The position numbers and the translations under genes are program-made. Of a stretch of DNA of 64,000 nucleotides, positions 1-60,062 are shown one piece after another. The notes below the pieces were generated by a model that saw nothing but the letters and a program-made list of their open reading frames with translations, made no database searches and was not told where the DNA came from. The DNA comes from Octopus sinensis (taxonomy: Eukaryota). Numbering within the stretch: position 1 is the stretch's first letter; every line of letters starts with the position of its first letter. The stretch lies in assembly GCF_006345805.1 (NCBI RefSeq), contig NC_043014.1, positions 9,982,001-10,046,000 of the forward strand. Direction: 5' to 3'.

Positions 1-493
1 GTATCGCCCGGCGATACTATATAACTATATAAGCATTTTTAGAGAGTCACTTCCCTTATAGATGCAAATTCGGGCTTTCTTAGCCATTTCTGTTTTGGTG
101 TCTTCAAGCCATGAAGTCGTTGTTCTAAAAGAACGCTGGTATCCTTGACAACGCTTTACGACGTTGATTTCCTTAAACTCCCTTCCCCACAGCTTCACGA
201 GGGGTGGAAGAAGGGGGAGAAGCAAACAGGTGCAGGTGTGACCATGGACGCCAACTCCGCCGCCATTGACACACGAAAAAATATGCATTAAAATGGAATA
301 AAAAATGATGTTAAATTATTTTTTAAATCGTAGACTCATCGTAGACGCGCGCTAATAGCCAGACGGGCTTGATATGAATCACGACTATAAGATACCCGAA
401 TTTGGTTAAACTGCACCGCAAAATGTGGGAGTAGTTAGGAATCTAAATCGAAGGGGACAGACACTCACACAACTACAGTTTTATATATATAGA
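1..493 (-). mobile_element. Non-autonomous Helitron (3' end cut by window edge)
   Basis: Minus strand starts TCtatatatataaaactgtagttgtg (493) and matches the copies at 39897 and 53163. It ends in cgccgggcgatac at base 1, part of the shared 3' hairpin. Carries about 220 bp (roughly 62-285) absent from the other copies. Confidence 0.85.
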
Positions 494-5183: not shown

Positions 5184-5774
5184 TATAAAGAACAGAATAA
5201 GTGTGTTGCAAGCACAGCAACAACGGTTTTTCAAAAGGGATTATAAGCTTTCAGGCAGTTTCCATTTGACAGCCATTGAACTTCTCTGCGCTACAATACG
5301 CACTTAAAACCTTTATCATTCTTAGTAGAGAGGGTTGAAACATTAGGGGATTGAGCGTAGGTGCCTTGATATTGTTTACTGTTAATAAAAGTGCTCAACT
5401 ATTTGTTAAGTCTCAAAGTTACGTTATTTATTAACACTGGTTTCCTGTTGATTATATAGTGCGCTGTAAACACGCGAGATATAGCTTTTACAATTGACTG
5501 AAAAAGCAGCGATGACAACCTACCATCGATGATGATTTATTGCTCAAACACGAAATTCGGATTCTTTTGTATCTCTTTCTTGTTATCTTGAGCCAAATGT
5601 TAATCTCTAACGAAGCAACATAAGCAAAAAAACATACTTTTACTGCTTGGCAAAGATGATTCATCTAACTGCACACAAATTCGGTTGTTCTGAGTCTGTG
5701 TAAAATGTATCTTCAATGTTGTATTATTCATATCGAAACGTTTGTAATATACATTTATACTTTTATTCTTATAT

Positions 5775-5989
5775 TATTTTATTTGTTTCAGTTATTTGAC
5801 TGCGGCCATGCTGGGACACTGCCTTTAGTCGAGTAAATCGACCCCAGGACTTACTCTTTGTAAGCCTAGTACTTATTCTATCGGGTCGCTTTTGCCGAAC
5901 CGCTAAGTTACGGGGAGGTAAACGCACCAGCATCGGATGTCAAGCGATGTTGGGGGGGGGGGCAAACACAGAGACACAAACATATAAAT

Positions 5990-6034
<45 letters not shown>

Positions 6035-6207
6035 ATATATACGACGAGCTTCTTTCAGTTTCTGTCTACCAAATCCACTCACAAGTCTTTGATCTCGCCC
6101 GTGGCTCTAGTAGAAGACACTTGCCCAAGGTGCCATGCAGTGGGACTGAACCCGGAACCATGTGGTTGGTGAGCAAGCTACTTATCACACAGCCACTCCT
6201 GCACCTA
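5775..6207 (-). mobile_element. SINE family D (tRNA-like head, internal (TA)n/(TG)n, LINE-like tail)
   Basis: Head GCAGGAGTGGCTGTG.., cttgggcaag segment, tail ccagcatggccgcagtcaaa..ctgaaac. About ten copies in the window. Confidence 0.85.
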
Positions 6208-19543: not shown

Positions 19544-19950
19544 AGGTGCAGGAGTGGCTGTGTGGTAAGTAGCTTGCTAACCAACCACATGGTTCCGGGT
19601 TCAGTCCCACTGCGTGGCATCTTGGGCAAGTGTCTTCTGCTATAGCCCCGGGCCGACCAAAGCCTTGTGAGTGGATTTGGTAGACGGAAACTGAAAGAAG
19701 CCTGTCGTATATATCTATATATATATATATATATATATATGTGTATTTGTGTGTCTGTGTTTGTCCCACTAGCATTGCTTGACAACCGATGCTGGTGTGG
19801 TTAAGTCCCCGTCACTTAACGGTTCGGCAAAAGAGAACGATAGAATAAGTACTGGGCTTACAAAGAATAAGTCCCGGGGTCGATTTGCTCGACTAAAGGC
19901 GGTGCTCCAGCATGGCCGCAGTCAAATGACTGAAACAAGTAAAAAAAAAT
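19544..19950 (+). mobile_element. SINE family D
   Basis: Full-length copy. Confidence 0.9.
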
Positions 19951-20899: not shown

Positions 20900-21110
20900 T
20901 ACTCTTACTCTTTTTACTCTTTTACTTGTTTCGGTCATTTGACTGCGGCCATGCTGGAGCACCGCCTTTAGTCGAGCAAATCAACCCCGGGACTTATTCT
21001 TTGTAAGCCCAGCACTTATTCTATCGGTCTCTTTTGCCGAACCGGTAAGCATCGGCTGTCAAGCAATGCTAGGGGGACAAACACAGACACACAAACACAC
21101 ACATACATAG

Positions 21111-21167
<57 letters not shown>

Positions 21168-21332
21168 TACGACAGGCGTCTTTCAGTTTCCGTCTACCAA
21201 ATCCACTCACAAGGCATGGTCGGCCCGGGGCTATAGCAGAAGACACTTGCTCAAGATGCCACGCAGTGGGACTGAACTCGGAACCATGTGGTTGGTTAGC
21301 AAGCTACTTACCACACAGCCACTCCTGCGCCT
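20900..21332 (-). mobile_element. SINE family D
   Basis: Reverse complement of family D, with a small internal deletion. Confidence 0.85.
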
Positions 21333-24299: not shown

Positions 24300-24685
24300 T
24301 CTCTCTCTATATATAAACGGCAGTTTGTCTGTGTGTGTTTCTGTGTGTCTGTCAGGTTGTACCCTCACCCTGACCACGGCTTTCAACCGATTCTGATGAA
24401 ACTTGACACACACATAGCCCAATGTCAGAATTCAAAACTAACGCAGGGAAAATTTTGAAAAGTTCCCCCAGTTCTGAAAAAAATCGATAAATTCCACATG
24501 GGATCGAGAATCAGAAACACAAACCACAGACTGTCTAGGGGACGCAACTCGACCTTTTTTAACTCTCAAAAAAATTTACCATCATTTCTTTTCCATTTTT
24601 TTGCTATTTTTTGGCTATAACTCTCTATAAATGCTTTATAGTTATTTCCCTTACAAACCTGAGCAACGCCGGGCGATACTGCTAG
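24300..24685 (+). mobile_element. Non-autonomous Helitron with a different 5' half
   Basis: A|TC start and cctgagcaacgccgggcgatactgCTAG|T end. Confidence 0.85.
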
Positions 24686-29953: not shown

Positions 29954-31023
29954 TCTTTGTATTTCTACATAATGCTGTATACCTGTCTTTATGTATATTT
30001 ATATATCTACACGTATATGCAATTTATAGATTATATAATATATATATATGTATGAGTATGTGCATCTATGTATGTGTATATGTTTATATATGTATGCTTA
30101 TATATGTATGTTTGTGTATGTATGTATATATACTGGTATATATGTATACATGCATGTGCATGTACATATATTTATATATGTACTAGCTGAATTGCCCGGC
30201 GTTGCTCGGGGCTGAATTGCTTGAAAGTACTGTTAATGATTGCACTGAATTATGATGATTATTCAGGCAAATATTGATATAAGTTCACGGCGAATGAATG
30301 TATTTGTAAGTGTATAGAAAGCCATGTAAAGGTGTTCCTACCCCCTCGTAGAATGGTGTAAGAATTGAATGTGAGGTTGCCTTGAAATGAGCCATGTTAT
30401 TGTTCTCATAATTGTAAGAATTTGATAGTCGTGGAAGGCGATGTAAAACGTTCGCAGGTGAATAGGGTCTCTTCGTTTTGCACGAACGGCAGCGGATGTG
30501 CTGTTACAAAACTTGATGCTGTGTTAAAAGAGAGTGGATTTCATATGTAGGCAAGAGAGGAATGAAGCATGGGTAAGTAAATATGTGTAATTTATAAAAT
30601 ATAGAACAATAGCATCTACTCACCATATGTCAGACCGGCAAGACTGTAGTGGTGGTGATTAGGTGAATCACAATACAGTGGTGGAGATGTTTTCATTGAT
30701 GGGCGTTTTGATTAAATTTGTTGTTGTATAAAATGATCTGTTGATTAGTTTCGAAAGTGTATGTTGCGATCGTGTTGTCGCTCATGTAAACTTTAACAAT
30801 GAGAGTGTAGATGTAGGGGGTAGATGTGTCATGTACGTTGGATATAGAAGATGAGGCTGGTGGTTTGATGATGAATGGATAGAAATAGAGTTGAGCGAAG
30901 GACAGGTGTTGGTTAAGTGTGAATTAATGTAATGAAACGCCTAGAAATGTAAATGCCGTCATAAAAGAGAGTCGTATGTAAGTGAAATACTAACGTGTTT
31001 GAAAATGATGAAACGTAGTAATC

Positions 31024-34000
31024 CTATAAAACCTCCTTGTACACAATGTTTTTTGTTTTTCGTTGTGGAAGGAATGCGAAAGCATCACTGTTGCTGCCGA
31101 CACGTGAGCAGCCAACATAAAGCTGACCATGAGAGAAACATGGCTCTCCCAAATGTATTCCTGCCACAGACAGTGTTTGACCCTGCGCTTTGTTAATTGA
31201 CATTGCGAAACATGGCCTTACTGGGAACTGGGACCTCCGAAATATGAAAGGTAGGTCTGCTCCTGATGGGAAAAGATGCATCCTAGGTATGAGCACAACG
31301 TTGCCTCGACCGCACCCTGTGATAATGGTGGCCTCAATCAGATTGGGAGATAAGGACTTAACGATCAAACGTGTGCCATTACATTGTTTTGGGGGAACCA
31401 AATTTCTAATGAGCATTATAGGGGCACCAACTTTAAGTTTGAGAATGTGTGGTGGTAGTCCGGGGGGCTCAAAGGAATTGAGTACCTCTATTGGATAATT
31501 GATGACGTCGTCTGGGTCAGGAGTTGTATCAATAGACTTATATACATAGACATCTCCAGGAATGAGTTTTAGCATTTCATCATTAATATGGTGAACAGTT
31601 TTATTCCTCGGGGCCAGAATAGCCCTTTGGCCAATCCAATCCATATTCTGATAATTAGCTTGTAGATCTGGGAAGACTGCATCTCTGAGATCAGAAGGCG
31701 TGTTAACAATGGTACAAATGGAATCGATGGCAATATTACCATTTTCATCCCCTGGTATTTTGCCTTCGCCAAGTGCAAGGAGGGTGTGAGAAAATGCTGC
31801 TGATGTGATATCACGTCGCATATGAGCACGCATATTGGTGTGAAGTTTGAGAGTCTTCACCAGTGGCCACAATGTGGATGACTTAAGACACGCACTTACA
31901 GCATCAGCTCTAGTCCCTTTGGGAATAACGGGAAGTGTTTGTCGGAAGTGCCCTGAAAGAAGAAGTGTTATGCCTCCCATGGGAGCTGAAGAGTGTTTGA
32001 TGTCTCTGAGAGATCTATCTAGTGCCTCAAGAGCACCTCTGTGGGCCATCGTGCATTCATCCCAAACGATAAGCTTGCATCGTCTGAAGACTTCTGCCTG
32101 ATCGGAGCTGTTACTGATGTTGCAAGTTGGTGTCTCAGTCTTCGCTAAGTCAAGTGGGAGTTTGAAAGTAGAGTGAGCTGTCCTGCCGCCTGGCAACAAA
32201 GTAGCCGCAATTCCAGATGATGCCACAGCTAGGGCAATGCCTTGTGTTCGCCTAATCTCAGCCAATATTAATTTGTTGACAAAAGTTTTCCCAGTGCCCC
32301 CAGGAGCGTCCAGGAAAAAAATGTCCCCAGCTTTGGCCCGGACTGAATTAACATCGGAGTTGTAAGCGAACTTCTGTTCTGGAATGAGCTTTGGCTCATT
32401 GTCGGCTATGTACTCGGCAAGCTCGTCAACATTAAAACATGTCTCACGCAGCAAATGTGAAGACAGAGTGTTTGTGCCTTCCCGGTTTGTTGAAGGTAGG
32501 CCATAGACCGGCAAGGCACTACCGCCCATATCGAGTACAGTATCTTCGATTTCAAGCAGCGCCCTGTTGTAAATGAGGTCAGTGTACCCGACCTCCATTG
32601 ATGGATGTAGCGATTGAGCGTGATGCAGGAAATCTTCAGACATATCATCTTTGTAGGTAAGCCATAAAGAGGCGGGATTAGCCAAGTCACACCATAGTAA
32701 TAGAATAGCGAAAAGCGATCTTATTTTTTTAGGAGATTTTAATGAAACACCTTCTGCCATAGTGGCGCCCCATTGTGAATCATCCTCCAAAAGTCGACGC
32801 CGAAAACAGGCTTCACGGAAAGTATCACATAATACACCATCAACAGTTCTGATGTCTTGAAAACTTTGTGGGCCTAAAACCTCATGGAGGAGAAGGCGCA
32901 GGTGAAAACAGTCATGTTGGTTTGGAGGTACAGTGTATACTCTTCCTAGACAACTGTTAAACTTGACACCAGGATGTCCTTCAACATCCTGACCCGACTT
33001 CCTACGCACCCAATTGTTGTTTGACCACACGTAGTAGGACGGGACCTGAGGGTATAAAAGTGTTTTAGCAAATGTGTCAAGTTGGCAAAGCCTAAAGAAA
33101 CCGGTCAAAGTTGTTTGTTTTGGATTTGCCGCCAAATCAGCTGCAGTCTGTTCAGTAAAGTAAGTTCGTTGGCCATTTTCCAATGAACCGCTAGTTGTAT
33201 GATGGCGGGGTGCCTTTGGTGAAGTGGAAACCCGAATATCCGCCAAAAAGCTTCACCACTGCTTATGTACCGACCTGCCATGTACTGTGACACCTCGTCC
33301 ATGCTATTGTCCTTTTGAAGGCCAAACATGGCAGCGTCAGAACCCTTGTTAACATATTTGCATATATACTTTATAGACTTGACTGAATGACAGAACTCCA
33401 CATTTATGTGAGCGTTAAAAGTTTTCATCAGAAATGGACAGTACGGCACTACCCACCTATTATCCACTTGATGACCCCGTAACGTTATAGTGAATCCACC
33501 ATTGTCAGGGTGCCTTCTTCTGTACAGTGGGTATCCGTCGCGGCCGGTCTGGGTCTCGTCCACGAACCTCTTTGGGTACCGTTTAGTGCACACGTGGTCT
33601 TTGTGGCATGAGGAGAACTTTTGAAAACCAGGACCGCACGGACCGTGTACCATGTGTGCCTTCACAATGTCGTACAGGTGCCGGTCAACAGTTGGGTCCG
33701 GAATTTCTGCTGCAATGAGATCATCAAGAACTGTTGGGTCTATTTTGTTGACCAACCAAAGCAAAATGTGCGCATGTGGCAACCCTCTTTTCTGCCACTC
33801 AACAGTATACATGTAGCAGTTAACAGGCCCAAAAACCTGGCCTTTTTTTATTAAAAGAATGAGCTTAGCCAGTTTCTGCCTGAAAACCCTTGCAATAATA
33901 TCATGGCGATGACAGTACTGCTGCCCTGGGAGAAGTTCTCGCGTTACCTCAACCCACTTTGGGTTACATGTAAAGGTAATGAATAAATCGGGTCGCCCAT

Positions 34001-35743
34001 AATGCCGAACGTAAGTCATAGCGTCTTGTGTTCGCTCGTGCATGTACCGTGGGCCCCCTGTATAGTTTGAGGGGAGAATGCACATTTTGCCGATATTGCG
34101 GGCGTCAGTGTCATTCCTGATGCCATCACGCAAATGGATGTAGGAGTCTGAGCGCAGCTGCTTCTGATTCAATTTGATGAAGCCCAGTCTCTCGGACTCC
34201 ATCTTTGCAGCCATGTCAACTGCAAACTGGTGAAACAGTTGCCGTGATCTGTGCAGGGGGTTGAAATCATTATGCCTTGTCATGAAGCGGTATGAGTAAA
34301 AAGCCATACATGAAACAGTTTTAGATGTCGCAGCCGAGGGCTCGTTTGTTTGTGGTGAGGAATGCCGAAATGGTACCCGTCTTCTCCATAGGGAAAAAGA
34401 AGGGGATACTGCAGGGCGTCATATGACCGATGCGTCTCATTAATACGCTGAAGACCACTGTCGCGGCTTTGAAGAACTATGTCCCGCTGCTTGTGCTGTT
34501 CACCATGGAGAACTATGGCCACTTCATTGCACGAAGGAGCGTTATATCGCCGCGCGTGCTCCCCAGAAGGCCTTTTGTCAGCATCGATGACAATGGTGAA
34601 TGTTGGTGAAGGGGCTGTTTCCAAGGCGTATTTGAAACTGCGAATATAGCTGTTGTGGTCATGAAGCATGTTTTGCAGAGTGAGCAGCACGTCCCTGTCG
34701 AAATTGTCAGCGTTAGTGTTTGCATGTTGTGGAATTACGTCGAAACGCAAATCAAGTTGCCTATTATAATTTGTAATAAAATAAATTTGAATGAACGAAG
34801 GTTTGCAATTTTGTAGTGGCTGGAGTGACCCAATAATGTGGTACACCTGGCCCTGGACCTTGAAAGTAGGCATCCAACCAGTTTCTCTGACAACGTTAGC
34901 CCCGAAAGAAGTCATCTGAAATGCACAATTGTATTTCCTGATGAGTTGAAGGAATTTTGATGACCTTGATGTGGAACCAGTAAGTAATTCCTTCAAAGGG
35001 TCTGGCAGCTCCCGAAGAGGGGGCAAGCTGACCTTACCGTTTAAGCAGCACATCGCAGGTGGTTCCCCAGCCCACTTTTTAGCATTGCAGAATTGGCAAT
35101 TGAAGAACATTTCCCCAATATTTATGTCAGCGTGCATCGAGTAATTGAAGTTGGGCTCATACTTGAAAGCACGTAGATGCCAGTAAGGTCTGTTTGGACT
35201 CGTCAGACCGCGGCGTCGACTGTTCCGCTGGAATGTAGAACGTTGCTGGTCTGAGTCGTGGTAATGTGTCGAAAATGTTGAAGCAGCAGTAGCCGCAGCG
35301 TTTGTAGCCAGTCGAGTGGCCCTTTGTTGTGAGTCCTCTGAAGCCCTTTGTGCAGCAACAGCAGAAGCCTTTATGGCGCTGCGCTTCGACCTTGTTTCCG
35401 GACCGTCTGAAGCCGTGGAAGCAGCATCGTATGAAGCAACCGCAGCGTTTGTAGCCAGTCGAGTGGCCCTTTGTTGTGGGTCCTCTGAAGCCCTTTGTGC
35501 AGCAACAGCAGAAGCGTTTATGGCGTTGCGCTTCGACCTTGTTTCCGGACCGTCTGAAGCCGTGGATGCAGCATCGTATGAAGCAACCGCAGCGTTTGTA
35601 GCCAGTCGAGTGGCCCTTTGTTGTGGGTCCTCTGAAGCCCTTTGTGCAGCAACAGCAGAAGCGTTTATGGCGCTGCGGTTCGCCTTTTTCGCAGCTGCTG
35701 CTGCAGTATGGCGGCCGATGTGACTTCTCTTTTTCGGTGGCAT
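31024..35743 (-). CDS. Helitron RepHel (HUH Rep plus PIF1-family SF1 helicase), about 1570 aa, split into three ORFs by two 1-nt frameshifts
   Basis: Zn motif CQFCNAKKW..MCCLNG. Rep motifs PDLFITFTCNPKW, VEWQKRGLPHAHILLW and KYICKYVNKG. Helicase motifs DAPGGTGKT, IVWDE, GHFRQTLP, FAMSINKAQGQT and HGQLYVGCSRV. Confidence 0.95.
35295..35675 (-). repeat. About 2.6 copies of a 147-bp (49-aa) coding tandem repeat in the RepHel N-terminus
   Basis: gtagccagtcgagtggccctttgttg recurs at 35304, 35451 and 35598. Confidence 0.9.
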
Positions 35744-36213
35744 TTTATGTGAAAAAGAAAGGGTGAAAGTTACTTAAAGATAGAAATTGTAATTTGAATG
35801 AAATGTGGAAAAATGTAAAGCGTGGAAGGAAAACAAATAAATATTAGCAGCTGAAAGAAATTTTTTATGCAAGTATAGCGACAGAGTGTGTAAAATGTAT
35901 AGAAATTTGAGTTAAAAGCCAGAAAAGAAAGTTAGATTTGCAATAAAGGAAGTAGTTTACGTACATGTTCGAAATGTGAAGTGTTTTAGTTGTTTAATCA
36001 AGTATTTGCGTAAAGTGTATAGAAACGTAAATTGAAAAAAGAAAATGAATTGAAATTTTTTAAAGAAAGGAATTTGTTTACATACATGTGTGAAATGGCA
36101 AATGTTTGTGCAGTTGTCCGAAATGGAATCCAGGGTAAATGTGTGGAACTGATGTATTATAATAGGGATCTTCTCGCCAAAATGGATGACCAGTCTGAAT
36201 GGCTCACCCCTGT

Positions 36214-36248
<35 letters not shown>

Positions 36249-37559
36249 ACAGACACACACGCACAGACACACGCACACACACACAGACACACACACACGT
36301 TAGCTTACAATGTCTGTCAACAATTGACACTGTCGTATATATTAGCGTGTCTATGTGTCTAAAGAGGAAGTTGGAGTAATAGGCAGAGTAAAGGCTTCAA
36401 AGTAAAATGTTAAAATATTGAGTTTTCTCGAATTTTGTCTTAATTGGGGGTGAAATTGAAAGAAATTTTGTATGGCATGAACCAATGAAAGTTCTTTGAA
36501 AAATCATAGGTAAAGTGTAATTGAAGAAATAAAGTGTAATTGAAGAAATTGTGTGAGGAGTAAATCATTATGTATTTATTTGTTTCTGTTTGCTGCTTTC
36601 TTTTTAAATATTACATCTAGTTTCACTTTATTCGTTGCACACTGTGTGTGTGCGTTTGCGTGTGCTGTAAACCAGACTAAGAAAAGCATTTGACACACAC
36701 ACCAGAATGTGAGTTTTCTGTAAATTTTGCTTAATTGGAGTTTAAATTTTAAAAACTGGAGCTGGCATGACGCGATGCATTGTACTCTTAAAAATGCTAG
36801 GTAAATTGTAATTGAAGAAATCCTATATTGTAGATTTGTATAATTCCCAAAGGGAGGCAGATAAAATCTGCCTTTTATAATAAGAGATATATGTAAGTGT
36901 ATGTGTGGGTGTATAATGTATATATATATATATATATATAAGTTTATATACATGTGTATGTGTGTATATATGTATGCGTATAGTATGCATATCAGTGTAT
37001 ATATTTATATATATTTATGTATGGTCATTAATATGTACATGTGAACGTATGTACGTGTGTATGTATATGTAAACATAAATATATACATATGTATGCGGGT
37101 GTCTTTGCATTTATTTTGTACACATGTTTATATCATAATGGATAAGTAAAGTATAAAATGTATCAATAAACATACCTTGATAACATTACTAAACGAAATT
37201 ACGTTTACTTATTTATTATGAAGAACCATTTACAAGTTGCTTATTCTAATCCAATTATATTGATTGACGAAAAATAAGGTCTTATTTTTAATACCTAATA
37301 AGTCTCTTGTATTGAGACAAAAATGTTTGTTATTTGAAATTTTTAAATCGTATTATAACGTGGACATATCAGAAAAAATATTTAGTGGATTAATTCATAA
37401 TATTTCTTAATATGTTCCAGTGAGAATATTGGTATTGAATGTAAGATATTTCATTATAATCGTAGTTAAGTACTAATTATAAATTTAAAGTAAGCGAGCT
37501 TTCTTATACTAAATAATTATACATTATAAATTGATTAATTAATTAATTAATTAATTATG

Positions 37560-38194: not shown

Positions 38195-38562
38195 TTCTAC
38201 TTGTTTCACTCATTTGACTGTGGCCATGCTGGAGCACCACCTTTTAGTCGAGCAAATCGAGCCAGGACTTATTCTTTGTAAGCCTAGTACTTACTCTATC
38301 AGTCTCTTTTGCCGAACACCAGCATCGGTTGTCAAGCGATGTTGGGGGGACAAACTCAGACACACAAACATATACACATACATATATAGATATACATATA
38401 TACGACGGGCTTATTTCCGTTTCCGTCTACCAAATCTACTCACAAGGCCTTGGTCGGCCCGAGGCTATAGAAGACACTTGTCCAAGGTGCCACGCAGTGG
38501 GACTGAACCCGGAACCATGTGGTTCGTAAGCAAGCTACTTACCACACAGCCACTCCTGCGCC
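38195..38562 (-). mobile_element. SINE family D
   Basis: Reverse complement of family D. Confidence 0.85.
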
Positions 38563-39896: not shown

Positions 39897-40283
39897 TCTT
39901 TATATATAAAAGAGAGGTTGTGTGCTGTCTGTCTCCTACGATTTAGATTCCAAACTACTCCCACATTTTGCGGTGCAGTTTAACCAAAACCGGGTATATT
40001 CATATCGAGCCCTTCTGGGTATTAGCGCGCGTCTACGATGAGTGTACGATTTAAAAAAAATTACCATCATTTTTATCCATTTTAATACATTTTTTCGCTA
40101 TTATATAAGGGAAGTAATTCTCTAAAAAATGTCTACGATGAGTCAACGATTTAGAAAAAAATTTACCATAATTTTTTTCCATTTTTAATGCATTTTTTGG
40201 CTATTTTTGGGCTATAACTATCTAAAAATGCTTATATAGTTATTTCCCTTACAAACCCGAGCAACGCCGGGCGATACTGCTAG
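39897..40283 (+). mobile_element. Non-autonomous Helitron
   Basis: A|TC start and cccgagcaacgccgggcgatactgCTAG|T end. Confidence 0.9.
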
Positions 40284-43494: not shown

Positions 43495-45024
43495 TTCTTA
43501 TAGATATATATATATACATACATATTAATAATACATACAATATATACATACATACATATATATATATACATAATATATACATACATATATAAATACATAC
43601 ATACATATATACATACATACAACATACATACATATATACATACATAAGATATATATACTAAAATATATACATAATACATATATATATACATACACTAACG
43701 TAATATATATACGTACATATATATATACATACATACATATATATATACATACATATATATAACATACATATATATATACATACATATATATATACATACA
43801 TATATATATACATACAACATATACATACATACATATATATTTACATACTATATATATACATACATACTATATACATCATATTACATACATACATATATAT
43901 TACAACATACATAATATATACATACATATATATATACTACATACATTATATATACATACATATATATATATACATACATATATATATACATACATATATA
44001 CATACATACATATATATATACATACATAATATATATACATACTATAATTTATACAACATACAATATACATACATACATTATATTACATACATACATAATA
44101 TATATACATATATACTATATACATACATTATATATAATACATACATATAATCTACATACATAGATATATACAGATTATATATAATATAGATACATACATA
44201 TATTAACATACATATATATATATACATACATTATATACATACATATACATACATATATACTACATATATATATACATTATATATATATATACATACATAT
44301 AATACATACATATACATACATATATACATACATATATATATATACATATTATATATATACATATATATATACATACATATATATATATATTAAAATATAT
44401 ATATACTTACATATATATATAACTATATATATATATATTACATATATATATACATAATATATATATTATAATATACATATATATATTTATATACATATAT
44501 ATATATATACATATATATATACATAATATATACATACATATATATTTATATACATATATATATTTATATACATATATATACATATATATTTATATACATA
44601 TATATATTTATATACATATATATACATATATATATACATACATATATATATTTATATACATATATATATTTATATACATATATATATTATATATTTATAT
44701 ACATATATATTTATATACTTATTATATCCATTATATATTTATATACATATTATAGATATATATTATATATATATTTATATACTATTTAATACATATATAT
44801 ATATATATATATAATTACATACATACATATATATACATACATATATAAACTACATATATATCATATATACATTATAACCATACATACTATATATACATAC
44901 TACATATATATATACATATTATATATATATACACATATATTCTATTTATACACATATATATATATATATACACACATATATATTATATATACATATATAT
45001 ATCTATATACATACATATATATAC

Positions 45025-45060
<36 letters not shown>

Positions 45061-47140
45061 ACATACATATAGATACATACATACATATTATACATACATC
45101 ATATATTATATATACATATATATATAAACATACTATATCATACATACATACATCATATATATAGCATACATACATACATATATTTACCTACATATATATA
45201 TCTATATCATACATATATATATATACATATATATATATATACATATTATATATACAATAATATATATATATATATACATATATATACATATATATACATA
45301 CATACATACATATAATACATACATACATATATATACTACATACATACATATATATACATACATATATAATATACATACATATATATAACTTACACATATA
45401 TATATATACTCTACACATATATATATATATACATATATATATATCTACATACATATATATATATAATATACATACATATATATATACATACATACATCTA
45501 TAATATATACATACATATATATATATACATACTATATATATATATACATACATATATATACATAATACATATATATACATACATACATATAATAATATAC
45601 TATATATATATATAACTATATATACATACATACATACATATCTATCATACATACATACATATATATACATACATACATATATATATATATACATATATAT
45701 AATACATATATTATATAGATATACATATATATATATATACATATATCTATATATATATATATAAATAATACATATATATACATACATACTACATATATAT
45801 ACTACATACATATATATACATACATACATACAATATATACATACATACATATTATATACATACATATATATACATATACACATATATATATTATATACAC
45901 ATTATATATATATACATATATATATATACATACATATATATATATATATACATACATATATATATATACATACATATATAAATATACATACATATATATA
46001 TACATACATATATATATATACATACATATATTTATATATACATATATATTATACATATATATAATTTATATACATATATATATTTATATACATATATATA
46101 TTTATATACATATATATATAATTTATATACATATATATATTTATATACATATATATATTTATATTACATATATATATATTATATACATATATATATATTT
46201 ATATACATATATAATATATACATAATATATATATACATTATATATATATATTATATATACATATATATACATATAATACATACATACATACATATATATA
46301 CATACTTACATACTATACATACATACATACATATATATACATACATACATATAATACATATATATATACATATACACATATATATATATATATATACATA
46401 TATCTATATATATAATTATATATATACATTACATATATAAATAATATACATACATATAATATATACATACATACATATATATATATACATACATATATAT
46501 ATATACATACAGATATATATACATACATATTATTTATATACATACATATATATTTATATACATATATATATATTTATATACATATATATATTATATATAT
46601 ATATATATTTATACATATATATATATTTATATATATATATATATTTATATACATATATATAGTTATATACATATATATATATTTATATACATATATCTAG
46701 ATATAATACATATATAATATATATATTACATATATATATATATAATACATATATATATATATATTTATACATATATATATATTTATATATATATTATATA
46801 TTATATACATCTATATATATTTATATACATATATATATATATATTACATATATATATATATATTTATATAAAATATTATATATATTTATATACATATATA
46901 TATATATACTATATATATATATATTTTATACATATATATATTATATTTTATACATATATATATACATATCTATATACATATATTATATACCTATATATAT
47001 ATATTTATATACATAATATTTATAACATATATATATATATATTTATATACATATAATATATTTATATACATATATATATAGTATAAATATATATACATAT
47101 ATATATTAATACTATATATATATATATATTATTTATTATC

Positions 47141-47178
<38 letters not shown>

Positions 47179-47209
47179 TTATATACATATATATATCTAT
47201 ATATATTTT

Positions 47210-47254
<45 letters not shown>

Positions 47255-47426
47255 CATATATATATATATATATATATTATATACATTATATATATCTATA
47301 TATATTTATATACATATATATATATATATATATATTTATATAATAAATATATATATATATATTTATATACATTATATATATATATATATATATATTTATA
47401 TACATATATATATATATTGATATTAC

Positions 47427-47460
<34 letters not shown>

Positions 47461-47490
47461 CATACATATATATATATATATATTATATTC
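43495..47490. repeat. About 4 kb of (TA)n/(TACA)n low-complexity sequence
   Basis: Direct reading; irregular indels throughout. Confidence 0.95.
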
Positions 47491-47665
47491 ATATATAATA
47501 ATAATAACATTAGAGAGTATGTAGTGTTTTTACTTATATATTGTTTATTCAGGTTTGTACTTTTTGTCATCTAGTTATATGTTTTATAATATATTTTATT
47601 TTTTCTTATATGGCATGATTACGTCTATATCATTGTTTGAATTACATAATAGTGGTTTTCCTCTA

Positions 47666-50765: not shown

Positions 50766-50865
50766 NNNNNNNNNNNNNNNNNNNNNNNNNNNNNNNNNNN
50801 NNNNNNNNNNNNNNNNNNNNNNNNNNNNNNNNNNNNNNNNNNNNNNNNNNNNNNNNNNNNNNNNN
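50766..50865. other. Assembly gap (100 N)
   Basis: Direct reading. Confidence 1.
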
Positions 50866-51160: not shown

Positions 51161-51575
51161 AGGCGCAGGAGTGGCTGTGTGGTAAGTAGCTTGCTAACAA
51201 ACCACATGGTTCCGGGTTCAGTCCCACTGCGTGGAATCTTGGGCAAGTGTCTTCTGCTATAGCCCCGGTCCGACCAATGCCTTGTGAGTGGATTTGGTAG
51301 ACGGAAACTGAAAGAAGCCTGTCGTATATATGTATATATATATATATGTATGTGTGTGTTTGTGTGTCTGTGTTTGTCCCCCTAGCATTGCTTGACAACC
51401 GATGCTGGTGTGTTTACGTCCCTGTCACTTAGCGGTTCGGCAAAACAGACCGATAGAATAAGTACTGGGCTTACAAAGAATAAGTCCCGTGGTCGATTTG
51501 CTCGACTAAAGGCGGTGCTCCAGCATGGCCGCAGTCAAATGACTGAAACAAATAAAAGAGTAGAAAGAGTAAAGA
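51161..51575 (+). mobile_element. SINE family D
   Basis: Full-length copy. Confidence 0.9.
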
Positions 51576-52459: not shown

Positions 52460-52624
52460 CAGTAGTGGCTCTGTGGTAAGTAGCTTACTAACCAACCACA
52501 TGGTTCCGGGTTCAGTCCCACTGCGTGGAATCTTGGGCAAGTGTCTTCTACTATAGCCCCGGGCCGACCAATGCCTTGTGAGTGGATCTGGTAGACGGAA
52601 ACTGAAAGAAGCCTGTCGTATATA

Positions 52625-52669
<45 letters not shown>

Positions 52670-52870
52670 TTGTGTGTCTGTGTTTGTCCCCCTAGCATTG
52701 CTTGACAACCGATGCTGGTGTGTTTACGTCCCCGCCACTTAGCGTTTCGGCAAAAGAGACCGATAGAATAAGTACCGGGCTTAAAGGAATAAGTCCCGGG
52801 GTCGATTTGCTCGACTAAAGTCAGTGCTCCAGCATGGTCGCAGTCAAAATGACTGAAACAAGTAACAGAG
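52460..52870 (+). mobile_element. SINE family D (followed by a degenerate family B copy at 52875-53090)
   Basis: Matches the consensus of other copies. Confidence 0.85.
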
Positions 52871-53162: not shown

Positions 53163-53554
53163 TCTTATATATAAAACTGTAGTTGTGTCAGTGTCTGTCC
53201 CCTTCGATTTAGATTCCTAACTACTCCTCCCATTTGCGGTGCAGTTTAACCAAAACCGGGTATCTTATAGTCGTGATTCATATCGAGCCCTTCTGGGTAT
53301 TAGCGCGCGTCTACGATGAGTCTACGATTTAAAATAATTTACCATCATTTTTTTTCCATTTTCATGCATATTTTTTTAAAGGGAAGTAACTCTCTAAAAA
53401 TGTCTACGATGAGTCAACGATTTAAAAAAAAAATTACCATCATATTTTTTCCATTTTTAATGCATTTTTTTGCTATTTTTTGGCTATAACTCTCTAAAAA
53501 TGCTGTATAGTTATTTCCCTTACAAACCCGAGCAACGCCGGGCAATACGGCTAG
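53163..53554 (+). mobile_element. Non-autonomous Helitron
   Basis: A|TC start and cccgagcaacgccgggcaatacggCTAG|T end. Confidence 0.9.
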
Positions 53555-54426: not shown

Positions 54427-55237
54427 ATAACGAATTTTAAATATTCTAACAGCCAGCTTGCCCGACTTCAGTTCTTCGATTTTTGCTGTAGCGAGTAAAT
54501 TATATGTGGAAATTGACGATTTTTAATATGTTATCAGCATATTGCCTTTGAAATAATTTTCTTTAGCCCTTACTTATAAGTTGTTTATAATTTTAACCGT
54601 AAGGTATTTTAATATGCTGCCACATTTCTTGATGGAATTTTTTCTGGTAGAGAAAAAACTTCATCCTATATTAGTAGTATATATATATATATATAGATAT
54701 ATATATATATATATATATACATACACTTTGGGATGTATCCAGAAGATGATTCGAACCTCTTGTGGTTTCAGCTCCAGCTCGCTGTGCCGTAATTGCCAGC
54801 CAAGAGTAAAGTAAATGGATTGTTTTAAATTATCAGATTGAACTTTTAAAATGAACGAAGAATATATGCAGACCATTTCGAACACAGTTCTATTGCCCAT
54901 AACATCGCCCTCAAAATTTGGCACAAAGCACCAATTTCGGGGGAGGGGTAAATCGATTACATTGATCCCTTTGCTCAATTGGTACCTATTTTATCGACCC
55001 AAAATAATGACAGGCAAAGTCGACCTCGGTGCAATTTGAACTGAGAACGTAAAAACGGACGAAATCTCGCTCAGCATTTTATTCAGTGCCGTAACGATTC
55101 TTCTAGATGGGCGCCTTATATTTTACCCCTAAAATTAAGATGCTATCGTCAAGTTAAGTTCTAATTTAGAGTGTGCCACATTTAGCTAAACACATTCAAT
55201 GAAAGGAATTGGCCCCCAATCCATATGCTGACGACAT

Positions 55238-55474
55238 ACTCTTTTACTTGTTTCAGTCAGTTGACTGCGGCCATGCTGGAGCACCGCCTTTAGTCGAGCA
55301 ACTCGACCCTGGGACTTATTCTTTGTAAGCCCAGTACTTATTCTATCGGTCTCTCTTGCCGAACCGCTAAGTGACAGGGACATAAACACACCAGCATCGG
55401 TTGTCAAGCAATGCTAGGGGGACAAACACAGACACACAAACATACACACACACACACACACACACACCACACAC

Positions 55475-55524
<50 letters not shown>

Positions 55525-55692
55525 TATACGACGGGTTTCTTTCAGTTTCCGTCTACCAAATCCACTCACAAGGCTTTGGTCGGCCCGAGTCTATAGTAGA
55601 AGACACTTGCCCAAGATGCCACGCAGTGGGACTGAACCCAGAACCATGTGGTTGGTAAGCAAGCTACTTACCACACAGCCACTCCTGCGCCT
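55238..55692 (-). mobile_element. SINE family D
   Basis: Full-length reverse-complement copy. Confidence 0.9.
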
Positions 55693-59054: not shown

Positions 59055-60062
59055 TCTATATATATAAAAAGCGGAGTTTGTGTGTGCGTGTGTGTATTAG
59101 CAGACGTCTGTGTATTTGTATGTCTGTGCACAATGCCAATGATGGAGTGACAAGGGAGAGAAAGAAACAAAGAAGCAATGTGAGGAAGTGGCTTAAGTAA
59201 TAATTATAATTCACAGAAATGATTGTGTGAAAAGTTATTTCTTGCTCCAAAAAATGAAACAGTATCAAGGATTAACCATGAGTTAACGAATAGGATTCCA
59301 ACAGTCATTAAGGAGTACAAATGAGTTGATTCAGTCGTTGATGAAAATCAAGCTGGTCTTTACCGAACAGGGTTCCTTAATTCTCTTGAAACATCTGGAA
59401 CGCCTCCACATAAACTTTTTCTGATGTCCTAATAATGCTTCTAAGATATTTAGATCCTCATAAGTTAAGGCAGTGGGACAAGGTTGATTGTGAATACATT
59501 ATCACATATTGTGATAGAAGCTAACACCATCATTGGATATGCCTTGTAGGAAGAGGTTTTTATTCCAAGAATTCTAATCAAACCAACACACATGCCATTT
59601 GAGTTCAAGAGAACACAATTCCCAGTGCGACCTTGCTTCGCAATAGCTGTTAATAAAGCTGAAGGTCAGAATTTGAAATGTACGGGTTCTACTTAATTGA
59701 GCCTTGCTTCTCTCATGGTCAACTTTATGCTGGTTTCTCCAGGGATGGTAGTTTGCAATATATATTTGTCTATGCTCCAAACCAGAAAACAAAGAATGCT
59801 GTTTACCCAGAAGCTCTTCAAAATGAGATAGAATTTATCTCCCTTCACAGAAGTGGTCAATTTTGCATTTTCGTTATTTATTATCGTTATTTTGTTTTGT
59901 ATTATGAATTCAGAATTCCCCAGTTGAAGAATAAATTGTATCCGAAATAAAGAATAAATTCAATTGAGAATATCAAATTTCTATACAACATATTTTTGGG
60001 TTTTTTCTTCCAATATATAAAGAGTAGTTTCATTCCCGGGCAACGCCGAGTGCTACTTCTAG
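59055..60062 (+). mobile_element. Internally deleted Helitron retaining a decayed helicase C-terminus
   Basis: A|TCtatatatataaaa start. MPFEFKRTQFPVRPCFAIAVNKAEGQ and EPCFSHGQLYAGFSR. Ends cccgggcaacgccgag..CTAG. Confidence 0.85.

Follow-up and report, generated by a model that had tools for sequence, protein, structure and literature searches.

Helraiser, a distant relative that has been tested, no longer transposes when H593, H595, Y727, Y731, K1068 or R1457 is mutated (PMC4778049; here and below, published work is cited from excerpts of the papers). Motif 2 of the Rep nuclease reads RGL in Helitrons and RGS in Helentrons (PMC4067079), and STPRs have been reported almost only in class HLE1, the canonical Helitrons (HELIANO, PMC11417382). 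In Octopus vulgaris, eight Helitron families account for 178 recent insertions that together span 765,802 bp (PMC13282606), a mean of ~4.3 kb per insertion by our own division of those figures, and the supplement of that paper counts 84 Helitron families overall. Among the titles and abstract beginnings listed for Helitron and Octopus together, no tested octopus Helitron was seen. The 64,000-nucleotide stretch of the Octopus sinensis genome analysed here (NC_043014.1, positions 9,982,001 to 10,046,000; hereafter the window, whose own numbering is used throughout) holds a 6,705-bp Helitron on the minus strand, from 36887 to 30183. It is probable, in our judgement, that this is a full-length HLE1 element in which two 1-nucleotide (1-nt) losses interrupt the only RepHel gene, a member of a family that likely expanded recently in Octopus, and a copy that likely encodes no working transposase.

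A full-length Helitron inserted between A and T

By its sequence features the element is a canonical Helitron: it has TC and CTAG ends, an insertion point between A and T, a 3' hairpin, an HUH motif with two tyrosines and RGL, and a PIF1 helicase fused to Rep. It lacks two marks of an active autonomous copy, as the RepHel frame is interrupted twice as assembled and helicase motif III is altered. On the minus strand, the 5' terminal TC (36887-36886) is preceded by A (36888) and the 3' terminal CTAG (30186-30183) is followed by T (30182), placing the insertion between these two bases without target duplication, and the flanks on both sides are TA-rich, low-complexity, microsatellite-like DNA. 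The window contains 1,689 ATC triplets over its two strands, which makes the 5' TC weak evidence when taken alone. The 3' end is more than chance: a 28-base pattern describing it has five matches in the window, compared with 0.00 expected (100 shuffles). The four other matches belong to three elements of 386-392 bp, each of the form A/TC...CTAG/T (the slash marks the element boundary), and to one 1-kb remnant, and the 5' ends of all four resemble that of the full Helitron, starting A/TC..TATATAAA. Because four elements with the same 3' end also have similar 5' ends, the 5' boundary of the full element is supported as well. A GC-rich subterminal hairpin (30195..30210, minus), 12 nt from the 3' end, is kept in five window elements; considered alone it is weak, folding without advantage over shuffled sequences (z -0.9 to -1.4). 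Close to the 5' end lies a palindrome with an 8-bp stem (36855..36873, minus; z -4.2), as good as which none of 200 shuffles was. Both the intact termini and the identity as a full-length Helitron proposed in a preliminary description of this DNA are therefore borne out, the latter also by the target site, domains and catalytic residues.

The 5' non-coding region (35744..36885, minus) contains two old duplications, 36710-36821/36419-36530 with 74% identity and 36007-36107/35887-35986 with 73% identity, and a CA microsatellite at 36214-36298. No further copy of the full element was found in the window, where what was detected was limited to the matches to the 3' end and the remnant of an older helicase.

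A single RepHel gene with its catalytic residues in place

Three overlapping open reading frames (ORFs) on the minus strand, 35773-34280, 34418-33105 and 33252-31024, span the coding region without internal stops, as had been described, and when read with X at both breaks they give 1,573 codons and no stop. In 118 of 120 full-length relatives, all three are matched in order within one protein, and Pfam identifies STPRs, Helitron_like_N, PIF1 and Pif1_2B. The first piece (34349..35743, minus) begins with the start ATG and carries a basic PPKKR resembling a nuclear localization signal (NLS), the STPR repeats and a Cys4 zinc-finger-like motif, CQFC...CC (35045..35098, minus). The STPR tandem (35293..35690, minus; Pfam STPRs) comprises 2.7 copies of a 147-bp (49-aa) unit; its units are 96% identical to one another, and the window copy has the most of them (~3, compared with ~1 or 2 in sister copies). 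The second piece (33183..34346, minus) is the Helitron_like_N or Rep HUH nuclease, with motif 1 at 33983-33960, the HUH motif (RGLPHAH) at 33800-33768 and the two tyrosines (KYICKY) at 33371-33354; its motif 2 is RGL. The third piece (31024..33180, minus) is a PIF1 helicase of superfamily 1 (SF1), with Walker A at 32301-32284, Walker B at 32070-32056, motif VI at 31116-31099 and the stop codon at 31026-31024. It is fused C-terminally to Rep, and the fusion is seen in sisters across both breaks. The Helraiser structure (PDB 7LCC) aligns to both catalytic parts (E 1e-128 and 6.5e-98), and its essential residues H593/H595, Y727/Y731, K1068 and R1457 align to intact residues in the window.

Among 8,000 proteins scored, 672 with E 1e-50 or better are whole RepHel proteins of 1,300-3,710 aa, some of those named being spliced gene models, and all six catalytic patterns tested are found in 110 of the best 120 relatives. 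Together with the published O. vulgaris insertions, these counts give no support to the earlier view of intact animal Helitrons as uncommon.

Immediately past the residues LDMG, three O. sinensis gene models depart from the RepHel frame, and a fourth, partial model stops there; at the corresponding place (32522-32521, minus) the window reads G/GTAGTG. The pattern may reflect a splice donor upstream of the helicase part, whose use would yield Rep-only transcripts, or a habit of the gene predictor.

Two frameshift breaks not shared by sister copies

Each ORF join requires one extra base (34348-34347 and 33182-33181). Break 1 (34347..34348, minus) leaves a two-base codon, with one C of CC absent, where four of four sisters have Pro in the context H-H-K-P-N-E; the added A suggested earlier, which would give Q-N-E, is incompatible with these sisters and gives way to a missing C. 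At break 2 (33181..33182, minus), six of six sisters have Leu (V-H-L) in place of the two-base codon, which upholds the earlier call of a 1-nt loss; the proteins fit a shortening of TTT to TT and the loss of a lone C equally well. Because the sisters that span the breaks read through them, the breaks belong to the window copy or to its assembly.

The preliminary description attributed both frameshifts to homopolymer errors. They are indeed 1-nt losses private to this copy when compared with its sisters; a homopolymer origin is not established, because short runs are commonplace and long runs stay in frame. The runs at the breaks are two bases long, at most three, and neither break lies in any of the 18 coding runs of at least five bases, all of which remain in frame, whereas runs of at least two account for 46% of coding bases. 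Natural 1-nt indels in the window's old repeats likewise fall mostly within runs of at least two bases (101/159).

A rare histidine in helicase motif III

Residue 1266, in motif III, is His in place of a conserved Asp (SGHFRQ rather than the usual GDFRQ, as noted previously), encoded by CAC at 31948..31950 (minus), a single G>C step from GAC. Among the 380 proteins that match the motif III pattern, which 141 of 521 proteins do not, 372 have Asp, including Helraiser and all three O. bimaculoides proteins that cover the site, and none has His. Further rare helicase residues occur at 1131 (Asp replacing a hydrophobic residue), 1311, 1104 and 1425. Conservation at this position suggests that the exchange impairs the helicase, and the window copy would then likely be impaired even if both breaks were errors. 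With His in none of 380 proteins, other rare residues in the helicase and a frame broken twice, the suggestion that this copy was possibly recently active is not sustained.

When 50%-identity representatives were searched with the helicase part, the best matches were short pieces of 69% and 61% identity, both from O. bimaculoides, and no sister reached 90%.

Ordinary decay or assembly error

Across 918 columns, each covered by at least three sisters, 5 residues (0.54%) are private to the window copy, with frameshifted stretches in two of the sisters (8 and 17 columns) masked; the corresponding values for the sisters are 0.49-2.9%. The count rises to as many as 10 when the N-terminus is included, where, as at residue 161, coverage comes only from sisters of the other sub-lineage and up to five of the changes are perhaps not private. 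The estimated divergence, d, is 0.25-0.43%, equivalent to 12-20 substitutions in the gene. Using the indel-to-mismatch ratios of the window (0.052 for 1-nt indels and 0.082 for all frameshifting indels, from 104 repeat pairs), ordinary decay is expected to produce 0.6-1.7 frameshifts and to leave the gene without a stop with probability 0.45-0.63. Because 0.6-1.7 real frameshifts are expected at the copy's own divergence, decay can account for the breaks, as error also could. Mismatches at conserved columns were also considered as a measure of decay and rejected: of 434 such columns 28 mismatch, one of them the X at break 2, a count that equals or exceeds that of 110 of 113 relatives (7 of the 120, over 1,750 aa, were excluded), and because most are shared with sisters or with O. 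bimaculoides, they represent lineage divergence and not damage. At the rate implied in PMC13282606 (a Jukes-Cantor distance of 0.09 for 25 million years (My)), the copy would be very roughly 0.7-1.2 My old, an upper-leaning figure. We infer that its insertion dates from about the last million years and that its decay has begun. The sister models show damage too: three continue into different reading frames of their own DNA, and another terminates at a Gln codon, likely a stop.

Several points weigh against this reading. Single-base deletion is the commonest consensus error of long reads, and both breaks are of this type; under plain decay, the probability of two or more frameshifts is only 0.13-0.49. 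A degenerate TA tract of 4 kb (43499-47497), in which C outnumbers G to an extreme degree (skew about -0.94 at 44001-47000), is assembled without a gap, and a 100-N scaffold gap lies at 50766-50865; together they suggest a scaffolded long-read assembly. In a post hoc comparison based on small numbers, four of the five private changes are of the C>A type when read on the coding strand, compared with at most 4 of 73 resolved sister changes, which are mostly transitions (Fisher p 2e-4; nine further sister changes are unresolved); with the N-terminus included, the proportion is 5/10 (p 9e-4). All five private substitutions (35262, 34837, 34792, 34066 and 33815, minus) fall on a C with a second C next to it, as does the loss at break 1 (34348). 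This spectrum may point to technical error, such as an artefact of consensus calling, or come from a genuine process with strand bias. For motif III, protein searches found no O. sinensis or O. vulgaris sister that covers the helicase; His1266 and the other rare residues could be family-wide. A literature search on the function of the Asp in motif III returned nothing.

Some of these points favour the possibility that the copy is intact in the animal and is a working autonomous Helitron, with the breaks and the motif III change being consensus errors, or with the His being tolerated. This possibility also gains from the absence of stops in 1,573 codons, from the undamaged ends and target site, from a private divergence among the lowest of the copies compared and from one sister model with a +1/-1 pair within ~30 bases, as in error-prone assemblies. 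We nevertheless regard it as unlikely: three errors, one being a substitution, would have to have occurred independently, the possibility must accommodate breaks that avoid all 18 long runs and the additional rare residues at 1131, 1311, 1104 and 1425, and the absence of a stop is expected about half of the time anyway. That all three lesions are assembly errors and the locus is a natural, currently transposing autonomous octopus Helitron that also moves the 0.39-kb elements described below is a shade less likely again. If it were true, the locus would provide a natural, non-reconstructed active animal Helitron for work on mechanism and tools, and an active Helitron from the cephalopods, a group in which transposon activity currently attracts interest. 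For the breaks considered by themselves, real mutation and artefact are near even, with a slight lean towards at least one of the two being a real mutation.

A likely young family in a cephalopod-rich clade

The reading of the element as a broken copy of a recently expanded family draws on its sisters. The best Rep match is an O. sinensis protein with 97% identity, whose cluster contains eight O. sinensis proteins and one from O. vulgaris, and the O. sinensis sisters are 96-99% identical over Rep, compared with 83-84% for O. bimaculoides and 70% for cuttlefish. Because the sisters are this similar, the family is likely young and recently expanded in Octopus. In a Rep-core tree of 44 rows, the window copy nests among O. 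sinensis rows (99/93), which join O. bimaculoides (100/96); all nine cephalopod relatives, the window copy and two contig proteins form one 12-row clade (99/93), a pattern that fits a family long resident in coleoid cephalopods. O. sinensis and O. vulgaris proteins such as XP_029642741.1, XP_029636936.1, XP_029633892.1 and XP_029657260.1 share the N-terminus and the STPR unit, and several variant residues are common to the window copy and sisters P0365, P0366 and P0368. The sister models differ from the window copy in being partial and 'uncharacterized', in not reaching the helicase, in being open at both breaks and in having fewer STPR units. An exact look-up of 10 ORF fragments from the window in the protein collection found none of them (0/10).

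Recent horizontal transfer of the family into Octopus is improbable. Two contig proteins do fall inside the cephalopod-rich clade, and the cephalopod label needs three changes on the tree; however, all nine cephalopod relatives and the window copy belong to that single clade, identity is lower the more distant the host (95-99% in O. sinensis, 84% in O. bimaculoides, 70% in cuttlefish and 53-64% in other named animals), and no non-cephalopod match exceeded 72% in protein searches.

Another alternative holds that the three ORFs are a natural design, with the breaks bypassed by programmed -1 frameshifting or by small introns; both joins do need the same -1 shift, but it is hardly credible given that sisters are in a single frame at both sites, that 118 of 120 relatives are single proteins, that neither join has surplus residues and thus room for an intron, and that no slippery heptamer was seen by eye at either site, and we rejected it on the evidence of the sisters.

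Short and older Helitrons in the window

Three short non-coding Helitrons on the plus strand, at 24300..24685, 39897..40283 and 53163..53554, have the A/TC...CTAG/T form and the 3' end of the full element. They are ~85% alike to one another and, because they are no more alike than this, older than the full Helitron. The elements at 39897 and 53163 are 86% alike, and both hold a 100-bp internal tandem; another member of this short family, at about 1-493 (minus), reaches the window edge. It is possible, from the shared end, that these 0.39-kb elements are non-autonomous partners of the full Helitron's family. The 1-kb element at 59055-60062 (plus) is an internally deleted Helitron of another, older family: it starts A/TC, retains a decayed helicase C-terminus at 59193-59818 (41-55% protein identity) and ends in a hairpin and CTAG, followed by A instead of T. 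In addition, the window contains an interspersed repeat family of ~410 bp, with at least seven copies that are 80-91% alike (51164-51562, 19548-19942, 55236-55689, 20915-21329, 5771-6202, 38198-38560 and near 52460-52870).

By likeness to Helraiser (PMC4778049), the HUH nuclease of this family would nick one strand at the 5' A/TC by means of an active-site tyrosine, the PIF1 helicase would displace the nicked strand, the 3' hairpin and CTAG would terminate strand transfer, and the resulting circle would insert at an AT site. The window copy probably arrived by this rolling-circle route. Its intact ends would still let a working sister copy move it in trans, and the 0.39-kb elements, whose 3' end is the same, could perhaps be mobilised in this manner too.

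For a young octopus family known from 'uncharacterized' fragments, these results give the exact ends, the target site and the gene structure, and they identify a family 3' end that recurs on several short elements in the 64-kb window. Since the sisters are 96-99% alike, a family consensus could be tested in the manner of Helraiser. General knowledge of Helitrons is unchanged, as recent O. vulgaris insertions have been published (PMC13282606) and whole RepHel frames are common.

Comparison with known systems

Helentrons, or Helitron2 elements (HLE2; PMC4067079), resemble the window element in their RepHel core and rolling-circle mechanism. The strong palindrome near the 5' end might invite placement of the element in that class or in another variant group, an assignment that has next to nothing in its favour and that we consider refuted: Rep motif 2 is RGL and not RGS, the feature that is diagnostic in the published excerpt; Pfam found no endonuclease (EN) domain; the target is A/T and not T-T, with TC and CTAG ends; and no subterminal inverted pair joining both ends was seen among the 25 longest of 102.

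The STPR-bearing HLE1 elements of PMC11417382 share with the window element insertion between A and T and the presence of short elements with the same ends, possible partners in the present case. That paper lists STPRs among the domains found in separate ORFs, whereas the window family has them in the RepHel frame (as in sister P0367), an arrangement that is found in 15 of the 120 relatives listed and is thus not peculiar to this element. Helraiser, or Helibat1 (PDB 7LCC; PMC4778049), is alike in its TC and CTAG ends, its AT target and a 3' hairpin ~11-12 nt from the end, and also in having a single RepHel protein with an NLS, a zinc-finger-like motif, HUH, two tyrosines and a PIF1 helicase. 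It is distant in sequence, and what was tested was a reconstructed consensus; relative to it, the window copy has two breaks, the motif III His, STPR repeats and a weaker 3' hairpin.

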